A stretch of 37,735 bases of DNA from Deltaproteobacteria bacterium (GCA_037133255.1 JBAXON010000003.1:1-37735), one strand, 5' to 3'. Shown: positions 5,346 through 12,766, counted from the first letter of the stretch. Notes: generated from the sequence alone by a model not told the origin. Numbers and translations are program-made.

Positions 5346-6317
5346 TTACTTGAAAAGTAGGACAAATTTTTCAAAAATGTCTTTATTAAAGTGCTCCATC
5401 ATTTCTTCTTTCATTATCTTTAACGCCTCAAAAGGTTCAAGTTTTATTTTATACGGTCTTTTCGAAATTAAAGCATCAAAGACATCGGCAACCGAACAGA
5501 TGCGGCCGTAAATATGAATTTCCTCCCCCCGCATCTTTTGCGGATATCCCATGCCATTTGCCCGCTCGTGGTGCTGCAAAACAATCAACCGGCTCTCTTC
5601 ATTAATTTGATTCGTTTCATTAAGGAGCTTAAACCCCAAATCGGGATGTTTGCGCATCTCGTTCATCTCCTCATCGGTAAGTTTTCCCGGTTTGTTAATA
5701 ATTGCTTCGTCTATATAGACCTTGCCTAAATCGTGCAGGAAAAACCCAGCGCCCAGGGCATGCATGTCGTGATTACCTGATTTGGGAAAAAGTGTTTTAG
5801 CCAGAGAAACAGCCAGAACGCCGACATTTACAGAATGCACATAAGTATTATAGTCATGGGTTGTCAGGTTCATCAGATAGTGATTTGTGGCATTATCGTC
5901 AAGAATTAAATCAACAACGCCGACTATGCCTTCCTTAAATTGTCCGATACTTTTTTCATCAGGATTATCAAATAGTTTGCTCACCATATTTACCGAATGC
6001 CAATGTACCATCTTTGCTTTTGTCTTTGGCGACATTTTTTTGTCGGCAATGACTTCTCTAAAGTGTTCAGGAACAATACCTGCTTTCTCAGAAAAGTCCT
6101 TTTCCGGCTGAACTAATTCCCGAAGAATATCAGTTGCGGCAATACCTTTCTCCACGTCAATATTGACATCGGTAATTCCAAAGTTAATGATTTTTGAAAT
6201 CTGCTTGTTTGTTGTTATAGTAAAACTATTGCGCAAAAAGGGATGGGCGCGCCAGGCATGAGGCAGGCTTACATACATACCTACCTTGATTTCTTTAGCT
6301 TTAATGGCTTTTATCAT
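5346..6317 (-). CDS. HD-GYP domain protein (putative c-di-GMP phosphodiesterase) with DUF3391-like N-terminus
   Basis: HSVNV, HDLGK, HHERANGMGYP and ADVFDALISKRPYK motifs; N-terminal IKVGMYV...W..HPF. Confidence 0.9.
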   Translation of the reverse strand: MIKAIKAKEIKVGMYVSLPHAWRAHPFLRNSFTITTNKQISKIINFGITDVNIDVEKGIAATDILRELVQPEKDFSEKAGIVPEHFREVIADKKMSPKTKAKMVHWHSVNMVSKLFDNPDEKSIGQFKEGIVGVVDLILDDNATNHYLMNLTTHDYNTYVHSVNVGVLAVSLAKTLFPKSGNHDMHALGAGFFLHDLGKVYIDEAIINKPGKLTDEEMNEMRKHPDLGFKLLNETNQINEESRLIVLQHHERANGMGYPQKMRGEEIHIYGRICSVADVFDALISKRPYKIKLEPFEALKIMKEEMMEHFNKDIFEKFVLLFK

Positions 6318-8406: not shown

Positions 8407-8640
8407 TGAGACTCGAACTTCAAAAGCATAGCGAATTGAAGTTCGTTAGTCGAACTATCCCCGTAGCGCAGCGAAGAGGGATGTGAGAACCATTTTCAGA
8501 AGCGTAACGCACTGAAACCTGCTGGTGGAACTATCCCCGAAGCGAAGTACCCTGAAGGGCATCTGCGACAAATTGAAGTTCGTTAGTCGAATTATCCAGC
8601 ATTAAGAGGCGTATACTACCAAGCAGCTTGTCGTGGAATA
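8403..8640 (+). repeat. Cluster of structured repeats: copy 4 (8403-8482), degenerate copy 5 (~8483-8563), partial copy 6 (8571-8597) and tail
   Basis: TTAGTGA-GACT-[CGAACTTCAA/TTGAAGTTCG]-TT-AGTC-GAACTATCC; 8571-8597 matches 8434-8460 at 26 of 27 nt. Confidence 0.8.
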
Positions 8641-8928
8641 TGTTTCCAAAACTTGCTTTGAAGTCTGTACATTTTATTTTCGCAACTTGTAAAACTATAA
8701 TTCTTAACTATTGTTCAACTGGGTGTTAATACAATAGTCCTCAATACTCACAATAATATTTTCATTGGAAATTCAGTAAAGATTGTGGTTTATATATCAA
8801 AGTGTAGAAGTTTTCGGAAGGATGATTTGCTTAACTGGATGTTTCAAAGGCATAAAAGAGCAAATGCTTGAGGCAAAAATGATTGTTGGCGAAAAGACCG
8901 TGAGGCTTATCTTTTAAGGAGGAGGGGA

Positions 8929-10215
8929 ATGAATTACGACGTTTTTGTAAGTTATTGTTCAGAAGATAGAAAAATTGCCGATGCACTTGTTCATCATTTG
9001 GAGGGAAAAGAAATCAGATGCTGGATAGATCATAGAGATTTATTGCCGGGATTTAACTGGAGAGATGGCATAATAGAAGCACTTGAGGGCAATCCCGGAA
9101 TCGCTATGGTATTGCTCTTCTCTTCGGCATCAAACAAATCCAGACAGGTTATAAAAGAAATTTCCATGGCCGATGAGGAGAATATTTTAGTGATCCCTGT
9201 CCGAATTGAAAATATACTGCCGGAGGGCGCAATCAAGCTTGAACTTCAAGGAAGACACTGGCTGGATGCTTTTGAGGGAAAAGAAGACCGCATAGAAAAA
9301 GCTGCTGAACGTATAAATCAAACACTAACACGTTATAGCGAGAAAATATCTCTAAAACAGGATTCAGTTCCTAAATCAAAAGCTTCACGGCCTGCGGAAA
9401 AAGAATTAGCACCAGCGACACATGATGCAGTGGCACCAGTGAATACAGTCTCCGCCAGCAATGCGCCTGAAAATGTTCCTAAAATAAAGCCCATCAAACC
9501 GTCTGTAGATTCATCTCCTTCAGCATTTAGCCAGCTTCATGAAAAAATAGGCAGGAAATGGCAAAATGCCAATAAGAAGGCCATATTCATTGTCGCTTCG
9601 GTGATTTTTGTCATAATTGTAGTTGCCGATGTATTTATTTTTATTCCTGCGGCAAAAGACCAGTTATTACTGCTGAAAGGTAAGTTGCCGTTTTTAAGAG
9701 AGTCAACCGAAGCCATAAGCGAGAATACGGAAGCTGTAAGCGAGAATACAGAGGCCGAACAAGCGGCGGAGCAAAAAGCCGAGATCAAACCCAATGTTGC
9801 GTCTCTCAGGGCCAGTGAAGTTGATTTTATATTTGTCGGCATACGAATAGAGGGAAGCGACGTCACCTTGACAATCAGGATACGCAATAATTCTAAGAAG
9901 GAGAAGAGTGTTGCCCTGTATGATATTACCAAGAAATCATGGGTGAGATCCAAATTGATCGACAAGATGGGGAAGGGCTACGAAGTTGGTGGCGTGAATT
10001 TTTCCAAAGGCGGGAAGAAGATTACAAGTAAAGATGCCGGAACCAAGGGAGTTGTCATAAAACCGCATGAGGCTGTCAGCGCTTCTCTCCATTTCAAGAA
10101 AGTCGGTAATGACGTTACTTTGATCAACCTTCATCCGTTTATATACACGAGTGGTTTGATTGGGAGTAATTATACTGAGCATGACCTGCCATTGATTTTT
10201 GGTGTTACTCAATGA
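8929..10215 (+). CDS. TIR-domain protein with one transmembrane helix and a C-terminal extracytoplasmic beta-rich domain
   Basis: YDVFVSY box 1, CWID..D...G, SxxS..VIKEI (Glu at the catalytic position), VIPVRIE; hydrophobic segment AIFIVASVIFVIIVVADVFIFIPAA; strong AGGAGG RBS. Confidence 0.88.
   Translation: MNYDVFVSYCSEDRKIADALVHHLEGKEIRCWIDHRDLLPGFNWRDGIIEALEGNPGIAMVLLFSSASNKSRQVIKEISMADEENILVIPVRIENILPEGAIKLELQGRHWLDAFEGKEDRIEKAAERINQTLTRYSEKISLKQDSVPKSKASRPAEKELAPATHDAVAPVNTVSASNAPENVPKIKPIKPSVDSSPSAFSQLHEKIGRKWQNANKKAIFIVASVIFVIIVVADVFIFIPAAKDQLLLLKGKLPFLRESTEAISENTEAVSENTEAEQAAEQKAEIKPNVASLRASEVDFIFVGIRIEGSDVTLTIRIRNNSKKEKSVALYDITKKSWVRSKLIDKMGKGYEVGGVNFSKGGKKITSKDAGTKGVVIKPHEAVSASLHFKKVGNDVTLINLHPFIYTSGLIGSNYTEHDLPLIFGVTQ
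9709..9750 (+). repeat. 21-bp tandem duplication encoding EAISENT-EAVSENT
   Basis: GAAGCCATAAGCGAGAATACG / GAAGCTGTAAGCGAGAATACA. Confidence 0.8.
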
Positions 10216-10240
10216 TCACGGGAAAGCCCAAAACAAAAAC

Positions 10241-12280
10241 ATGGTAAAGCACACTATTTCCAAATTCACACTTTTTAGCCGCTGGATTCAAAAGTATTCC
10301 TGGCGGCTGATTATATCTATGCTTATCGCTGCGGCAATATTAGCGATTGCCAGTTTGTTTTTAATACTTCTTGGCAAGCCCTCTGAGCAAGATACTCTCT
10401 TTAATATTGCTCAATTTTTAGCAGCATGCGCTACCATCTTAGCAACCATACAAGGGTTTTGGAAACAAATTCGGGGAAAATACGATTTGATTCGTATGCA
10501 ACAGACCTCCGGCCATATCGTTATTTGTGGCCTTGGTGATAAAGGCATGCGTCTTATGAACATATTTACAGAAAAAGGATTCAGGGTAGTTATTATAGAA
10601 GCACAAAAGAATCATCCTGATATTGCAGGTTGCAGGGAACGGAATGTCGTGGTGATGATTGGCGATGCAGCAGATGGTGTTGTGCTGGACGAAGCAAATA
10701 CTGCCGAGGCTAAGTATTTATTCGCTGTTTCCGGAGATGATAACACGAATATTAATATAGCTCACCAGGCGAAAAATCTGGCAGAGGCCGGACACAAAGT
10801 GGATGAAAAGATTTTTCTGCGCTGTTATGTGCATATTGCCAGATCAAGCCTGCGGAACATTTTTGCCTGCCATGAACTATTTGCAAAAACTTATGACTAT
10901 TTTAATGCCGGTATATTCAATGTCTATGAAACTTCTGCCAGAGTGATGTTTGAAAAATATCCTCCTGATTTTTATGCAGGCCGGCAAAATATCTCAAACG
11001 ATACCATCCCCATTGTGGTTATAGGCTTTGGCATAATGGGCGAAAATATAGTTAAGCAGGCTGCACGCATAGGTCATTATGCCCAGTGGACAAAGCTTGG
11101 AATTTCCATAGTTGACCATAATATAAAGGAACGTTTTGAAAAATTTATTGCTTTATATGGTGATGCTAAAACTCCACCTTCTTTCGCTGTACCGGACGTC
11201 AGCTTAAATTTTGTTGACCGTGACCCGGAATGCCTGTTGTCATCAGCCAATATCATAGGCACAGATGGCCTTCAACCGGTTGCCATATATATTGCTGTGG
11301 ATGACGATTCAATTGGTATTTCTCTTGCTCTCCGGGTGCGCAGAGTGCTTGGTTCAGATGCCACGCCGGTAATAGTCTGCATGCGTTCTTCTCTATCAGA
11401 ACTTATAAAAGGAAAAGAAGCTCAATTTATAGTAGATCAAAATATTCATGGTTTCAATATACATGACGCTGCCTGTGGCTATCAGGTATTGATAGAAGAG
11501 ATTACGGACGAGCTTGCGCAAGCCATTCATTCGGCATACGTCAATGCTCAGATTCTATTCACGAAAGATGATTTTACCAAAAGCACGCCACTTAGCTTGT
11601 TGCAATCTGTAGTTCAGGATGTTCCAATCATGCAGGATATTGATGAACAAAACCCTATAGATTCTCTTAATCAAATTATGAAGAAGCCTGATCTTTACGA
11701 TCGTCTTTGTGAGAAGCACAGAGATGTTTTAACGCCAAAGATAAAAAGACAAGTTGCCAAAACTAAACATTTACGAAACAAAACGTTTGATAGGCTTTCA
11801 GTGACGGGACAAGCGCAGATATTGATTCTTAATGCATACATGCTTGACGATACCTACCCCCAATTCTATCCCGCCAAAAAAAGAGAAAATACTGCCCTCG
11901 CGGCGTGGGAAGATTTGAACGAAATTATGAAGGATGCAAACCGCTGGTCTGCTGACCATCTATCGGTTAAGCTTCGCTCCATTGGGTTTGATGGTCGGGA
12001 CTTATCAATCTTTGATAAAGTTGCAAACGATCCCGAATTTTTTGAAAAATTATCCGAGATGGAACATCGCCGATGGATGGCTGAAAGACTTATGGACGGA
12101 TGGAGCTATGGACCAAAAAGAGACAGTAGGAAAAAGATTCATGATCTTCTAATCCCCTATGGACAGCTTGCAGTTGAGGAAAAAAACAAGGATAAAGATA
12201 TGATTCGAAATATCAAAAGCATGGTGACAGGCACGGGATGGAAGGAACATCTCAATTTTTTCAAGAATAGCTTAGCCTGA
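10241..12280 (+). CDS. Membrane protein with two TrkA-N-like NAD-binding domains and C-terminal RyR repeats
   Basis: Two N-terminal hydrophobic helices; HIVICGLGDKG and IVVIGFGIMG GxGxxG motifs; RyR signatures LAQAIH, WEDL....KDANR..ADH and EHRRWMAERLMDGWSYG..RD..KKIH..LIPY..L...EK.KD. Alternative TTG start at 10199. Confidence 0.85.
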   Translation: MVKHTISKFTLFSRWIQKYSWRLIISMLIAAAILAIASLFLILLGKPSEQDTLFNIAQFLAACATILATIQGFWKQIRGKYDLIRMQQTSGHIVICGLGDKGMRLMNIFTEKGFRVVIIEAQKNHPDIAGCRERNVVVMIGDAADGVVLDEANTAEAKYLFAVSGDDNTNINIAHQAKNLAEAGHKVDEKIFLRCYVHIARSSLRNIFACHELFAKTYDYFNAGIFNVYETSARVMFEKYPPDFYAGRQNISNDTIPIVVIGFGIMGENIVKQAARIGHYAQWTKLGISIVDHNIKERFEKFIALYGDAKTPPSFAVPDVSLNFVDRDPECLLSSANIIGTDGLQPVAIYIAVDDDSIGISLALRVRRVLGSDATPVIVCMRSSLSELIKGKEAQFIVDQNIHGFNIHDAACGYQVLIEEITDELAQAIHSAYVNAQILFTKDDFTKSTPLSLLQSVVQDVPIMQDIDEQNPIDSLNQIMKKPDLYDRLCEKHRDVLTPKIKRQVAKTKHLRNKTFDRLSVTGQAQILILNAYMLDDTYPQFYPAKKRENTALAAWEDLNEIMKDANRWSADHLSVKLRSIGFDGRDLSIFDKVANDPEFFEKLSEMEHRRWMAERLMDGWSYGPKRDSRKKIHDLLIPYGQLAVEEKNKDKDMIRNIKSMVTGTGWKEHLNFFKNSLA

Positions 12281-12339: not shown

Positions 12340-12675
12340 TTAAGAAATAGCGTCAGCGTCCCCTAAAGGTTTCCCACATTCCCGACACTTTCCATTGGAA
12401 CCAATCGTGCCAATGCAGGATTCATCGCTACACAAAACCCTCTTTTCCCATTCCTCATCGCAGGCGGGATCGTCGGCATTCTTTTTGAAATCATCTGCTG
12501 GTTTGGCCTGCGCCTCATTTTTATCGAGAGCGGCGGCGGGATTCAGGGAACCGTCAAAAGGCTTCCCACATTCGCGGCAGCGGCCATCAGGGCCAATTGT
12601 TCCTACGCAACTCTCATCGATACAGAGAGTTCTTTTATCCCAGTCTTCATTTTTATCAAAGATTAGTTCTGTCAT
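12340..12675 (-). CDS. Small protein with two Cys-rich repeats (putative metal-binding ribbons)
   Basis: Two copies of W.KR.LC.DESC.GTIG..G.CRECGKP; start could be 12675 (ATG) or 12690. Confidence 0.75.
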   Translation of the reverse strand: MTELIFDKNEDWDKRTLCIDESCVGTIGPDGRCRECGKPFDGSLNPAAALDKNEAQAKPADDFKKNADDPACDEEWEKRVLCSDESCIGTIGSNGKCRECGKPLGDADAIS

Positions 12676-12766
12676 TTTTTTCTCCGGCAATTAATTGGGA
12701 ATTTCCATATAACAACCGCGCATATTTTTCCAGCGCCAAAATGAAATTTGAAGCGTATAAATATTA

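Follow-up and report, generated by a model that had tools for sequence, protein, structure and literature searches.

The window (the whole 37,735-nucleotide stretch of DNA analysed, from a Deltaproteobacteria bacterium, GCA_037133255.1 JBAXON010000003.1:1-37735, with positions counted from its first letter) contains two adjoining genes that encode a membrane-anchored TIR protein (gene 1) and a membrane protein with tandem RCK and RyR domains (gene 2). Both open reading frames lie at the positions given for them in the initial annotation, on the + strand, and the anatomy it described is confirmed: in gene 1 a TIR domain with Glu77 in a VIKEI motif, one transmembrane (TM) helix and an ectodomain that is beta-rich in the AF2 model; in gene 2, after a gap of 25 nt, two TM helices, two GxGxxG Rossmann domains and two RyR half-repeats. 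The features are as follows.

8707..8928, + strand: conserved upstream region, candidate promoter and 5' leader (nucleotide identity to orthologous loci)
8929..10215, + strand: gene 1, single-pass membrane TIR protein, 428 aa (ORF, orthologues, AF2 model)
8941..9297, + strand: cytoplasmic TIR domain of gene 1, residues 5-123 (Pfam TIR_2, E = 3e-22)
9565..9672, + strand: predicted transmembrane helix of gene 1, approximately residues 213-248 (Kyte-Doolittle scan)
9796..10212, + strand: C-terminal beta-rich domain of gene 1, predicted to be extracytoplasmic, residues 290-428 (AF2 strands, pLDDT ~85-90)
10241..12280, + strand: gene 2, membrane protein with two TM helices, tandem RCK and RyR, 679 aa (ORF, AF2 model)
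10295..10450, + strand: two-helix membrane hairpin of gene 2, residues 19-70 (hydrophobic helices 19-48 and 52-70)
10517..10789, + strand: RCK1, a TrkA_N Rossmann domain with GLGDKG and acidic Glu120 (Pfam TrkA_N, E = 6.5e-17)
11003..11470, + strand: RCK2, second Rossmann-like domain with GFGIMG (weak Pfam NAD-binding matches; model residues 255-411)
11501..11983, + strand: first, divergent RyR half-repeat with His430, Tyr433 ... Trp556, Lys564, Asp565 (family alignments)
12035..12244, + strand: second RyR half-repeat with His609, Trp612, Arg627, His634, Lys650, Asp651 (Pfam RyR)

The upstream region is 78-80% identical, across ~214-220 nt, to the sequence 5' of the gene 1 orthologues in three related loci (L001, L002 and L006). 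The flanking genes differ among these loci and the window; what they have in common is the cassette together with its 220-nt leader. A consensus scan for a promoter within 8707..8928 scored no better than chance. A strong Shine-Dalgarno sequence (AAGGAGGAGGGG, ~8916-8927) stands directly before the ATG of gene 1. Gene 2 follows on the same strand, 25 nt separating the gene 1 stop from the ATG at 10241, which by sequence comparison is probably the start codon, an overlapping TTG at 10199 being the alternative; the ATG form is covered over 100% of its length by homologues of 677-679 aa. Protein identity for the gene pair is 68-88% across several Smithellaceae/Syntrophales assemblies, and gene 1 orthologues are 68-81% identical.

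Against solved TIR domains the AF2 model of gene 1 aligns well (VIA-align, Z = 15.9, r.m.s.d. = 2.6, 125 aligned), with Z-scores of 14.7 for the SARM1 TIR and 12.2 for ThsB. In the alignment with the TIR-STING chain 6wt6, Glu77 falls on the Glu of that chain and occupies what we take to be the catalytic position of TIR NADases; the Glu is kept in the partner TIRs of all eight TIR-bearing genome loci described below. The match of gene 1 to Pfam ThsB_TIR (13.5 bits) is below the cut-off of 21.2, and PADLOC gives generic TIR matches only, with ThsB at E = 0.024. A single hydrophobic helix is found in gene 1 by Kyte-Doolittle scan, preceded by the basic stretch KIGRKWQNANKK; the AF2 model has a helix at 198-237, of low confidence. 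The ectodomain is rare (33 representative clusters only, among 1.84 billion proteins) and is common to gene 1 and class III cyclases, 39 of 80 homologues carrying PF00211 instead of TIR. Periplasmic CsgG, FlgO or TolB_N domains are present in some of the 33 clusters. The receptor-like topology ascribed to gene 1 by the initial annotation (TIR, TM helix, ectodomain) recurs in 12 of the 26 TIR partners of the wider RCK-RyR family, where Peripla_BP_6/ANF_receptor (Peripla_BP_6 on one partner) and TPR sensor domains also occur.

The AF2 model of gene 2 (pLDDT 87.1, pTM 0.83) has as its best Foldseek matches GsuK (E = 1.2e-8), the TrkA ring (E = 3.8e-8), CASTOR and the BK gating rings; sequence identity with GsuK is just 11-14% over 443-538 columns. 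The titles of the GsuK entries 4gx2 and 4gx1 record crystals with NAD and ADP. Gene 2 shares with GsuK/MthK/TrkA-type proteins the layout of TM1 and TM2 followed by tandem RCK (TrkA_N-type Rossmann) domains, to which it adds the C-terminal RyR module. In RCK1, G97 and G99 are present in 51/51 sequences of the family alignment and E120 in 46/51; RCK2 is weak in Pfam and clear in the AF2 model. The connector between TM1 and TM2 is 17 residues long (15 in one protein) in the clade of the window's gene 2, vs. 31-45 (mostly 41-45) elsewhere in the family, and the segment forming the pore helix and selectivity filter of related channels, present in the GsuK/MthK type, is missing from this clade in the 51-sequence alignment. 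No T-x-G-Y-G selectivity filter is found in the gene 2 protein in that alignment, and TIGYGD/TVGYGD occurs in only 2/51 aligned homologues, which are distant family members; a true K+ filter is kept in 4/80 metagenome relatives. Judged from these alignments, the pore loop is lost in the clade of gene 2. The two-TM region scores only E = 0.07 with NCBIfam SLATT_4, and PADLOC has no match to gene 2. In the source annotations, homologues of gene 2 are called 'voltage-gated potassium channel Kch' or 'NAD-binding protein'.

The second RyR half-repeat is the one recognized by Pfam (PF02026, E = 6.6e-15, 55.6 bits vs. a cut-off of 27.4). The first (LAQAIHSAY ... WEDLNEIMKDANRW) lies 5' of the Pfam match, is kept in the family (H430 in 50/51 sequences, Y433 in 47/51 and W556 in 49/51) and is split by a clade-specific helical insert of ~110 residues. 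Gene 2 aligns with R12 repeats in the PDB (RyR1 chimera, E = 2.4e-24; RyR2, E = 6.5e-22) and with the phage RyR Tad protein gp68 (E = 2e-14), which binds 3'cADPR at 43 nM through H129/W132, K147/H154 and K170/D171 (10.64898/2026.06.04.730250). These six residues are aligned with H609/W612/R627/H634/K650/D651 of gene 2, five being identical and one a Lys replaced by Arg, and they are kept in the 51-sequence family in 42 (H609), 46 (W612), 40 (R627, as R or K), 35 (H634), 32 (K650) and 40 (D651) members. The spacing H, +3 W, +25 H, +42 D is the same in gene 2 as in RyDEP, whose catalytic His/Asp pair gene 2 retains. RyR domains bind or cleave TIR products experimentally (PMC13232231; 10.64898/2026.06.04.730250), and since identical residues are described in cleaving and in merely binding phage RyR proteins (PMC13232231), a sensor and a hydrolase are indistinguishable by sequence. 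ATP/ADP and dantrolene are ligands of animal R12 domains (cited in PMC13232231 and 10.64898/2026.06.04.730250), so the ligand of gene 2 could be an ordinary adenine nucleotide.

RyDEP and RyR Tad, the anti-Thoeris proteins of PF02026, belong to the same domain family as gene 2 and share all the ligand-contact residues with it. As described, they pair two units in a homodimer, whereas gene 2 has two half-repeats per chain. They are phage proteins, small and soluble, which degrade or sequester host signals, whereas gene 2 encodes a membrane protein of the cell itself, 679 aa in length; lying next to a TIR gene, it would be a natural receiver, or regulator, of such signals. The available text of PMC13232231 and 10.64898/2026.06.04.730250 holds no description that we found of cellular RyR-domain effectors. 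Animal ryanodine receptors resemble gene 2 in bearing the R12 domain on the cytoplasmic edge of a membrane protein of cation-channel type; unlike gene 2, they are 5000-aa Ca2+ release channels.

The initial annotation proposed that failure of the two genes to co-occur elsewhere would count against a joint system, and they do co-occur. Ten genome loci hold a gene 2 homologue (L001-L010), and in eight of these a TIR gene adjoins it, on either side and with differing TIR proteins. A gene 1 orthologue lies 25-28 nt 5' of the gene 2 homologue in L001, L002, L006 and L003 (truncated in the last by the end of the contig); L004, L009 and L010 encode a soluble TIR protein, ~980 aa long, directly 3', and L010 has a further 382-aa TIR upstream; and L005 has a 100-aa TIR_2 ORF downstream. 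Among 401 genomes of a phylum sample, PF02026 (RyR) occurs in 20 and PF13676 (TIR_2) in 116, and at least nine of the 20 RyR genomes have TIR_2 within 5 kb of RyR on the same contig, direct adjacency having been rechecked in six of them. The chance expectation is ~0.2 (58 TIR matches listed, ~84 Mb, ~27 RyR loci), a figure that treats related genomes as independent, which they are not. The remaining 11/20 RyR genomes have no TIR_2 within 5 kb among the matches listed, several contigs being short, and this counts against the association. So do the metagenome loci of the wider RCK-RyR family, of which 18/80 have a TIR ORF within 3 kb (9/36 where at least 1.5 kb is available on both sides); the TIR link is far from universal in that family. 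A fusion of TIR and RyR occurs in one metagenomic protein, P0126, which combines a multi-TM region with a TIR domain and two RyR half-repeats.

The defence-island context that the initial annotation proposed as a check is absent in the window and mixed in the loci of relatives. The window cassette sits amid housekeeping genes (LeuA, HD-GYP-like, phenylacetate-CoA ligase, ACT, endonuclease III, 2-oxoacid:ferredoxin oxidoreductase), and no known defence genes are found in the window flanks. Conflict-system-type neighbours occur in 5/10 related loci: GmrSD in L004 and L010, SLOG(YAcAr)/SLATT membrane proteins in L004, L008, L009 and L010, and a CARF-type Cas_NE0113 with an AAA-PD-(D/E)XK protein in L007. 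The cassette behaves as an accessory element, sporadic within its family; in the family sample RyR is found in the window's genome and in one of seven other genomes, that one of the same genus.

Together the two genes probably make up a Thoeris-like system, for signalling or defence, that is new. We give somewhat better than even chances to a reading in which RyR senses an ADPR-derived signal produced by the TIR, likely for abortive-infection-type phage defence. Gene 1 would be a type II single-pass membrane TIR protein whose periplasmic beta domain receives a cue; its cytoplasmic TIR domains would then cluster and cleave or cyclise NAD+ via Glu77 to yield a signal derived from ADP-ribose, most probably one of the cyclic ADPR isomers. 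As the receiver, gene 2 would bind this signal with its C-terminal RyR module, which is of the R12 type and carries both half-repeats in a single chain, and would pass the change through the GsuK/TrkA-like tandem-RCK ring to the membrane hairpin of two helices; NAD+/ADP may additionally be read at the Rossmann sites of this ring. An oligomer would permeabilise or depolarise the membrane, as other two-TM Thoeris and CBASS effectors do, and abortive-infection-type phage defence would be the most likely role. The proposal of the initial annotation that the TIR product is read by the membrane effector is supported. The likely reader is the RyR domain, which that annotation noted only for its origin in a channel family, the TrkA-N domains being a second, less specific candidate. 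As to its proposal of ion flux, flux through a K+-type pore is doubtful since the clade has lost the pore-loop segment, and permeabilisation or depolarisation is more likely than selective K+ conduction. The same absence counts against the model, in which the mechanism of the effector output is a putative one.

The strongest alternative, which we regard as unlikely but to be taken seriously, is signal transduction outside immunity: a periplasmic ligand or envelope state would act through the TIR and a cADPR-like messenger on the RCK-RyR protein, which would carry ions or, like TrkA/KtrA, regulate a separate transporter, for reversible tuning of ions or membrane potential. Class III adenylate cyclases, the other bearers of the gene 1 ectodomain, are classical second-messenger enzymes, and this shared ectodomain together with the Peripla_BP_6 partner TIR has the look of small-molecule rather than phage sensing. 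The receptor-like topology that is frequent among partner TIRs, with its sensor domains, the true K+ filters of some relatives, the housekeeping surroundings of the window cassette and the keeping of the pair in several Smithellaceae/Syntrophales assemblies point the same way. Against it stand the sporadic occurrence even inside the family, the varying genomic context and the conflict-system neighbours (GmrSD, SLOG/SLATT, CARF) of relatives, as well as the RyR sponges and hydrolases that phages are described as carrying against TIR signals, which demonstrate that immunity makes use of this ligand class.

It is improbable, to a clearly greater degree, that the TIR is an NAD+-depleting effector turned on via its ectodomain and that gene 2, receiving no activating signal, either reads the fall in NAD+ or the rise in ADPR/ADP at its Rossmann/RCK sites or, through RyR, sequesters or hydrolyses cyclic ADPR by-products as a buffer, in the manner of RyDEP in phages. 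TIR is an NADase effector in CBASS, Pycsar and pAgo systems (10.64898/2025.12.03.692087), GsuK as best structural match was crystallized with NAD and ADP, RCK1 keeps GxGxxG and the acidic Glu120, and the His/Asp pair catalytic in RyDEP is present. However, a buffer or hydrolase has no need of two TM helices and a tandem RCK ring, and the TIR proteins found beside members of the gene 2 family differ widely. RyR is, moreover, also joined to AAA ATPases, to TPR-S with class III cyclase and to RelA_SpoT, several of these proteins adjoining TIR genes; these varied fusions are the pattern of a sensor rather than of an enzyme, and from them RyR is predicted to behave as a portable sensor module. That the genes are mere neighbours, gene 2 an ordinary K+ regulator or channel (as its homologues are annotated) and gene 1 a stand-alone TIR, agrees with the presence of TIR near only about a quarter of the wider-family loci and is nevertheless very improbable, given the short same-strand gap kept in four genomes, the adjacency of non-orthologous TIRs in 8/10 loci, the excess over chance in the phylum sample, the TIR-RyR fusion and the absent K+ filter.

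The preferred reading, a Thoeris-like pair, has parallels in named systems. As Thoeris requires, the TIR of gene 1 has Glu at the catalytic position, and an adjoining, co-varying partner with a putative ADPR-signal-binding domain is present in the RyR of gene 2. The PADLOC results (ThsB only at E = 0.024, gene 2 unmatched) indicate that it is not a Thoeris type modelled in PADLOC 2.0; PADLOC names no system here, in agreement with the initial annotation, which did not recognize the pairing as a named system. Compared by main-text description, the closest named system would be type X Thoeris, a TIR with the 'ion channel' effector ThsK from Bacillus sp. BH32 that protects against phage and whose TIR made none of the known signal molecules (10.64898/2025.12.03.692087). 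It is likewise described as two genes, a TIR and a membrane ion-channel-type effector. The main text of that paper gives no domain content for ThsK, with RyR, TrkA, Ion_trans and NAD-binding absent from it; the word 'ryanodine' occurs there once, on animal cADPR signalling. The type X TIR cluster is related to type II ThsB and that text mentions no membrane-anchored TIR, whereas gene 1 is membrane-anchored; gene 2, in contrast to the 'ion channel' effector, has no channel pore loop. Types II (TIR and 2TM-Macro) and VII (TIR and SLATT) (10.64898/2025.12.03.692087) are described with the same logic, in which a TIR-made ADPR derivative acts on a cytoplasmic sensor fused to TM helices and the membrane is breached. 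In gene 2 the place of the Macro or SLATT pocket would be taken by an R12-type RyR sensor, separated from the TM helices by a tandem RCK ring, and the TIR of gene 1 is membrane-bound with an ectodomain, unlike those of types II and VII as described.

A bolder proposal, possible rather than probable, is that in cells the native receptor of cyclic ADPR signals from TIRs is R12-type RyR and that the cassette is a bacterial Toll-like arrangement. If this is true, an ectodomain, one membrane pass and a TIR would signal via a cADPR-type messenger to an R12 protein derived from a tetrameric channel. The cassette would then be a prokaryotic counterpart, possibly the evolutionary source, of the disputed animal cADPR-ryanodine-receptor axis, cADPR binding by animal R12 being a disputed question (PMC13232231). 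Phages would have captured this host sensor as RyDEP and the RyR Tad sponges, and AAA ATPases, class III cyclases and RelA/SpoT-type enzymes would be coupled to TIR signals through the same sensor. On plasmids, a tblastn search returned just two RyR-domain proteins, from Arcobacter and Methylobacterium.

The first gene of the cassette is a membrane TIR protein:

8929-10215, + strand: gene 1, ORF of 428 aa, with a strong Shine-Dalgarno sequence upstream

Pfam assigns TIR_2 (PF13676) to residues 5-123 of the product (E 3e-22). The AF2 model superimposes on solved TIR structures, with VIA-align matches confined to the TIR part (model residues 1-144), including Hydra TRR-2 (Z 15.9), SARM1 (14.7), ThsB (12.2) and AbTir (11.1). 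The conserved glutamate of a solved TIR aligns with Glu77 (VIKEI), a position which we take to be that of the catalytic glutamate of TIR NADases. A disordered linker and a basic stretch precede a single hydrophobic helix (~213-248), which is followed by a low-complexity spacer rich in Ser, Thr, Glu and Ala and by a confidently modelled (AF2) all-beta domain (290-428) to which a Pfam scan assigned no family. This ectodomain is rare, being carried, always C-terminally, by just 33 representative clusters out of 1.84 billion proteins; in 39 of 80 word-indexed homologues the unit of transmembrane helix plus ectodomain follows a class III cyclase domain and not a TIR. A few representatives also carry CsgG, FlgO or TolB_N, periplasmic domains that fit an extracytoplasmic site for the gene 1 ectodomain. 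The arrangement of N-terminal TIR, predicted transmembrane helix and variable C-terminal part recurs in 12 of 26 TIR ORFs adjoining distant RCK-RyR genes [scanned examples have TPR repeats or a Peripla_BP_6/ANF_receptor domain (Pfam)] and likewise in the TIR partners of RyR-cyclase proteins in two genomes of the phylum sample (G281, G325). The topology is not peculiar to the window clade, and such proteins are in effect inverted Toll-like receptors. One metagenome TIR protein (L081:2457-4898), encoded 661 nt upstream of an RCK-RyR gene, resembles a receptor TIR that binds a ligand: after its one predicted transmembrane helix come Peripla_BP_6/ANF_receptor and 3-keto-disaccharide-hydrolase-like domains.

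Gene 2 (10241-12280, + strand, head to tail with gene 1) most likely starts at ATG 10241, 25 nt past the gene 1 stop, because homologues of 677-679 aa cover this form completely. A basic N-terminus leads into hydrophobic helices 19-48 and 52-70, joined by a short loop, and these are followed by TrkA_N (E 6.5e-17, GLGDKG), a second Rossmann-like domain (GFGIMG) and, at the C-terminal end, two RyR half-repeats, of which the second scores 55.6 bits against a Pfam cut-off of 27.4. The R12 repeats of RyR1 and RyR2 (PDB) match this second half-repeat at E 1e-22 to 1e-24. ORFs, Pfam and AF2 models thus bear out every element listed in the initial annotation (TIR, transmembrane helix and ectodomain; two transmembrane helices, two Rossmann domains and RyR). 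In Foldseek the AF2 model of gene 2 (pLDDT 87.1, pTM 0.83) is closest to GsuK (E 1.2e-8 over 443-538 aligned columns), a multi-ligand K+ channel with crystal structures in the presence of NAD and ADP (PDB), followed by the gating ring of TrkA, by CASTOR/DMI1 and by BK gating rings. Between the helices, TIGYGD or TVGYGD is present in 2 of 51 family members and such a motif in 4 of 80 metagenome relatives, most RCK-RyR family members have a degenerate LQLFxLESG segment in the place of the filter (alignment), and in the window clade (29 homologues and the window protein) ~24 residues are gone, so that only a bare membrane hairpin remains. The remnant filter motifs and the loss of the pore segment argue for a protein descended from an RCK-gated channel that, on its predicted layout, cannot form a canonical K+ pore. 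A complex prediction with four copies of residues 1-235 (score 0.00, mark 0.42) is uninformative on oligomerisation. Assignment of the two-helix region to SLATT_4 (NCBIfam, E 0.07) was rejected as below any threshold.

The reading of the RyR domain is altered by two mid-2026 preprints, cited here from the available parts of their texts (PMC13232231; 10.64898/2026.06.04.730250). Six of eight tested phage RyR homologues are described as binding cyclic ADPR signals, some with nanomolar affinity and without cleavage, and the hydrolase RyDEP, a phage anti-Thoeris protein, has the fold of the RyR R12 domain with a site formed by H75, W78, H100 and D117 (PMC13232231). Independently of that work, the sponge gp68 ('RyR Tad') of Pectobacterium phage CB1 is reported to bind 3'cADPR at 43 nM, and also 2'cADPR and cADPR, through contacts from H129/W132, K147/H154 and K170/D171 (10.64898/2026.06.04.730250). 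Gene 2 aligns with gp68 at E 2e-14 and 40% identity. The contact positions correspond to H609, W612, R627, H634, K650 and D651, five being identical and one a Lys to Arg replacement; the RyDEP residues were mapped onto gene 2 via the identical spacing in gp68, and gene 2 has the RyDEP spacing of H, +3, +25 and +42. Among 51 family members conservation is 42 for H609, 46 for W612, 40 for R627 (R or K), 35 for H634, 32 for K650 and 40 for D651, and the first and second His are invariant in seven RyR domains from four architectures. The parts available of the two preprints mention neither cellular RyR-domain effectors nor TrkA nor transmembrane forms (PMC13232231; 10.64898/2026.06.04.730250). The PDB also contains a chain of 139 aa, 35tm_A, entitled 'Ryanodine receptor Ryr domain-containing protein' and possibly of phage origin.

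The pairing with TIR genes recurs, as a check of neighbourhood conservation proposed in the initial annotation established. A pattern scan with one genome per species gave 10 loci with a gene 2 homologue (42-85% identity), and a TIR gene adjoins the homologue in eight of them. A gene 1 orthologue lies 25-28 nt upstream in four (L001, L002, L006 and L003, the last cut by the contig end). Three loci without such an orthologue (L004, L009, L010) have a ~980-aa soluble TIR protein directly downstream and a ~600-aa SLOG(YAcAr)-type membrane protein upstream, with a GmrSD-type nuclease beyond in L004 and L010 and an additional TIR protein of 382 aa in L010; L005 has a TIR_2 ORF of 100 aa downstream. 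The two loci lacking a TIR have other conflict-type neighbours: Cas_NE0113 and an AAA-PD-(D/E)XK protein in L007, and in L008 a SLATT_1 membrane protein (a homologue of those of ~600 aa), a ClpB-like AAA_2 ATPase, and radical-SAM and Zn-ribbon/SH3 proteins. The homologous membrane proteins (~560-615 aa; upstream in L004, L009 and L010, downstream in L008) have an N-terminal SLOG-like YAcAr match, and that of L008 additionally a C-terminal SLATT_1 match; SLOG/SLATT-type membrane proteins are a third component of the TIR/RCK-RyR loci in 4 of the 10 genomes.

RyR (PF02026) occurs in 20 and TIR_2 in 116 genomes of the 401-genome phylum sample. At least 9 of the 20 RyR genomes (G000, G181, G199, G239, G244, G272, G281, G321, G325) have TIR_2 on the RyR contig at a distance of no more than 5 kb, and six of the nine were confirmed by phmmer on fetched stretches; among the other 11 are highly fragmented assemblies, and 58 weak TIR hits were not part of the comparison. 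Chance would give ~0.2 loci (58 TIR matches, ~84 Mb, ~27 RyR loci) by hand arithmetic, the related genomes not being independent of one another. A further genome of the same genus (G268) was rejected as a case of gene 2 without TIR, its contig ending inside gene 1 as in L003, an assembly artefact. One homologue (P0126) is a single-chain fusion in which a multi-TM region is joined to TIR and to two RyR half-repeats. In the distant RCK-RyR family the association is looser: of the 80 metagenome loci retained from 301 relatives, 18 have a TIR ORF no more than 3 kb away, as do 9 of the 36 that have at least 1.5 kb on both sides.

Beyond tandem RCK, RyR is joined in the phylum sample and profile search to AAA ATPases and to TPR-S with class III cyclase, and also to RelA_SpoT and to a cNMP-binding domain; small stand-alone ORFs occur as well. 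AAA-RyR (about 875 aa) is the commonest bacterial form in the profile search and adjoins TIR genes in G199, G244 and G272, as RyR-TPR-S-cyclase does in G281 and G325. SLOG, SAVED, CARF and Macro sensors are ligand-binding folds shuffled among outputs and found beside signal-making enzymes, and the modularity of RyR and its place beside TIR would, by analogy, resemble their behaviour. The operons in G199, G244 and G272 (L043, L046, L047) combine an AAA-ATPase of 870-1040 aa bearing terminal RyR repeats with an RyR-only ORF (112-168 aa) and a TIR protein. Proteins of ~760 aa in G281, G325 and G397 (L044, L049, L051) have N-terminal RyR, TPR-S and class III cyclase, and a TIR-TM protein directly adjoins the gene in G281 and G325; a TIR signal may be relayed into a cyclic-nucleotide signal in such loci. 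By clustering, 24 of the 80 metagenome RCK-RyR loci share a neighbour of ~1000 aa, RelA_SpoT-RyR by its scanned example, so RyR domains pair with a second kind of nucleotide-signal enzyme. The labels of this cluster and of the TIR/DUF4062 cluster (21 loci) derive from one Pfam-scanned example each, supplemented by a purpose-built TIR HMM for 17 of 26 ORFs. The scanned RelA_SpoT example (L114:1176-4403) has an N-terminal nucleotidyltransferase domain and C-terminal RyR, and a relative (P0261) adds PF18171. A eukaryotic protein of 1341 aa (P0249) combines polycystin/Ion_trans channel domains with an RyR domain and is another instance of a cation channel that bears an R12-type module without belonging to the RyR family itself. 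An ESM Atlas Bacillota cluster with RyR in 13% of members is a lead only. A tblastn search of gene 2 against plasmids returned only two RyR-domain proteins.

We judge it somewhat probable that the cassette is a Thoeris-like defence system. A periplasmic cue would draw the gene 1 ectodomains together, the TIR domains would assemble and turn NAD+ into an ADPR-derived messenger, and the R12-type module of gene 2 would bind it; the RCK ring would pass the change to the membrane hairpins, whose opening or reorganisation would collapse the membrane potential. The same chemistry could serve reversible physiological signalling, which the ectodomains shared with cyclases and those of PBP type favour, and which we nonetheless regard as rather unlikely. 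Distinctly less probable is a TIR that acts as an NAD+-depleting effector, with gene 2 reading NAD(H)/ADP or buffering cyclic ADPR. RCK1 of the gene 2 family has GxGxxG in 51/51 members and an acidic residue, E120, in 46/51, at a position that normally binds adenosine ribose; their retention makes a second nucleotide site, for NAD+, NADH or ADP, plausible. That the two genes have no functional link is very improbable, non-orthologous TIRs on either side of the same effector being what is expected of linked genes.

What sets one Thoeris type apart from another is its effector, together with the domain that senses the TIR signal (SLOG, Macro, caspase-like, DUF2270, DUF6650, SLATT and others). 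The view in the initial annotation that the pairing is not a recognised named system holds in PADLOC and NCBIfam, which returned no named system. The closest is type X Thoeris of Bacillus sp. BH32, a TIR with an 'ion channel' effector (ThsK) validated against phages and with an unknown signal, as compared by main-text description only; that text names no domain of the effector, and neither RyR nor TrkA occurs in it as a word (10.64898/2025.12.03.692087). The study, which lists 29 putative Thoeris types, dropped operons containing PF00211 (class III cyclase), which would have removed the RyR-cyclase/TIR loci seen here (10.64898/2025.12.03.692087). A full-text literature search found no paper uniting RyR, TrkA and TIR domains in bacteria, and one for the RyR domain with effector, phage and NAD gave the RyDEP preprint and one unrelated paper. 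None of the texts searched describes a cellular effector that reads a TIR signal via an R12-type domain of the ryanodine-receptor kind; in them the RyR domain is known only from phage counter-defence proteins. On this comparison and these literature negatives, the cassette would follow Thoeris-type logic, but with a sensor domain that has yet to be described from hosts, an effector derived from a degenerate RCK channel and a TIR that resembles a receptor.

If the pair works as proposed, the cassette supplies the missing host side of the RyDEP/RyR Tad story, shows bacterial membrane-anchored TIR receptors with swappable ectodomains and points to candidate signals for channel-type Thoeris systems, whose signals are unknown. 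It would also allow R12 gating of a membrane protein by cyclic ADPR to be tested in a bacterial protein that is small and tractable; whether R12 gates upon cyclic ADPR binding is a question that animal RyRs have posed for decades.

The window is contig C3 of a 3.2-Mb assembly of 402 contigs, and relatives are labelled Smithellaceae/Syntrophales. The cassette is flanked by an ACT-domain gene on one side and by a small Zn-ribbon ORF and endonuclease III on the other, among leucine biosynthesis, phenylacetate-CoA ligase and 2-oxoacid:ferredoxin oxidoreductase genes; these surroundings are no defence island. RyR and TIR_2 each have a single match in the genome, and RyR is sporadic (1 of 7 other sampled genomes of the family, 20 of 401 in the phylum). 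The 220 nt upstream of gene 1 are 78-80% identical in L001, L002 and L006, which have no common flanking genes. Just upstream of this conserved leader lie copies of a 76-nt direct repeat (8410-8610). The stretch has 40 matches in the genome, spread over more than 30 contigs and 70-92% identical, and looks like a dispersed REP/MITE-like intergenic repeat. An Rfam scan of the whole window, the repeat included, gave no family, and in 8350-12800 matches to promoter and terminator consensus sequences (12 and 4) were about as many as in shuffled sequence (10.8 and 4.0), which left no usable site. The cassette stretch is present in lake and freshwater metagenomes from several studies. Three 151-nt contigs from one metatranscriptomic run (X20), in gene 1 (9499-9783) and gene 2 (10396-10546) and none bridging both, are a weak hint of expression of both genes, DNA carry-over being possible. 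Two neighbouring genes are:

5346-6317, - strand: protein with HD_5/HD and DUF3391 domains and an HD-GYP-like motif (HHE...GYP), encoded 2.6 kb upstream of the cassette
12340-12690, - strand: ORF of 116 aa directly downstream of gene 2, with two near-identical Cys-rich units, DESC[VI]GTIG..G.CRECGKP

The former product is a possible cyclic-di-GMP phosphodiesterase, and no link between its gene and the cassette was seen. The 116-aa ORF matched no family in a Pfam scan, and its repeated units look like a duplicated zinc ribbon.
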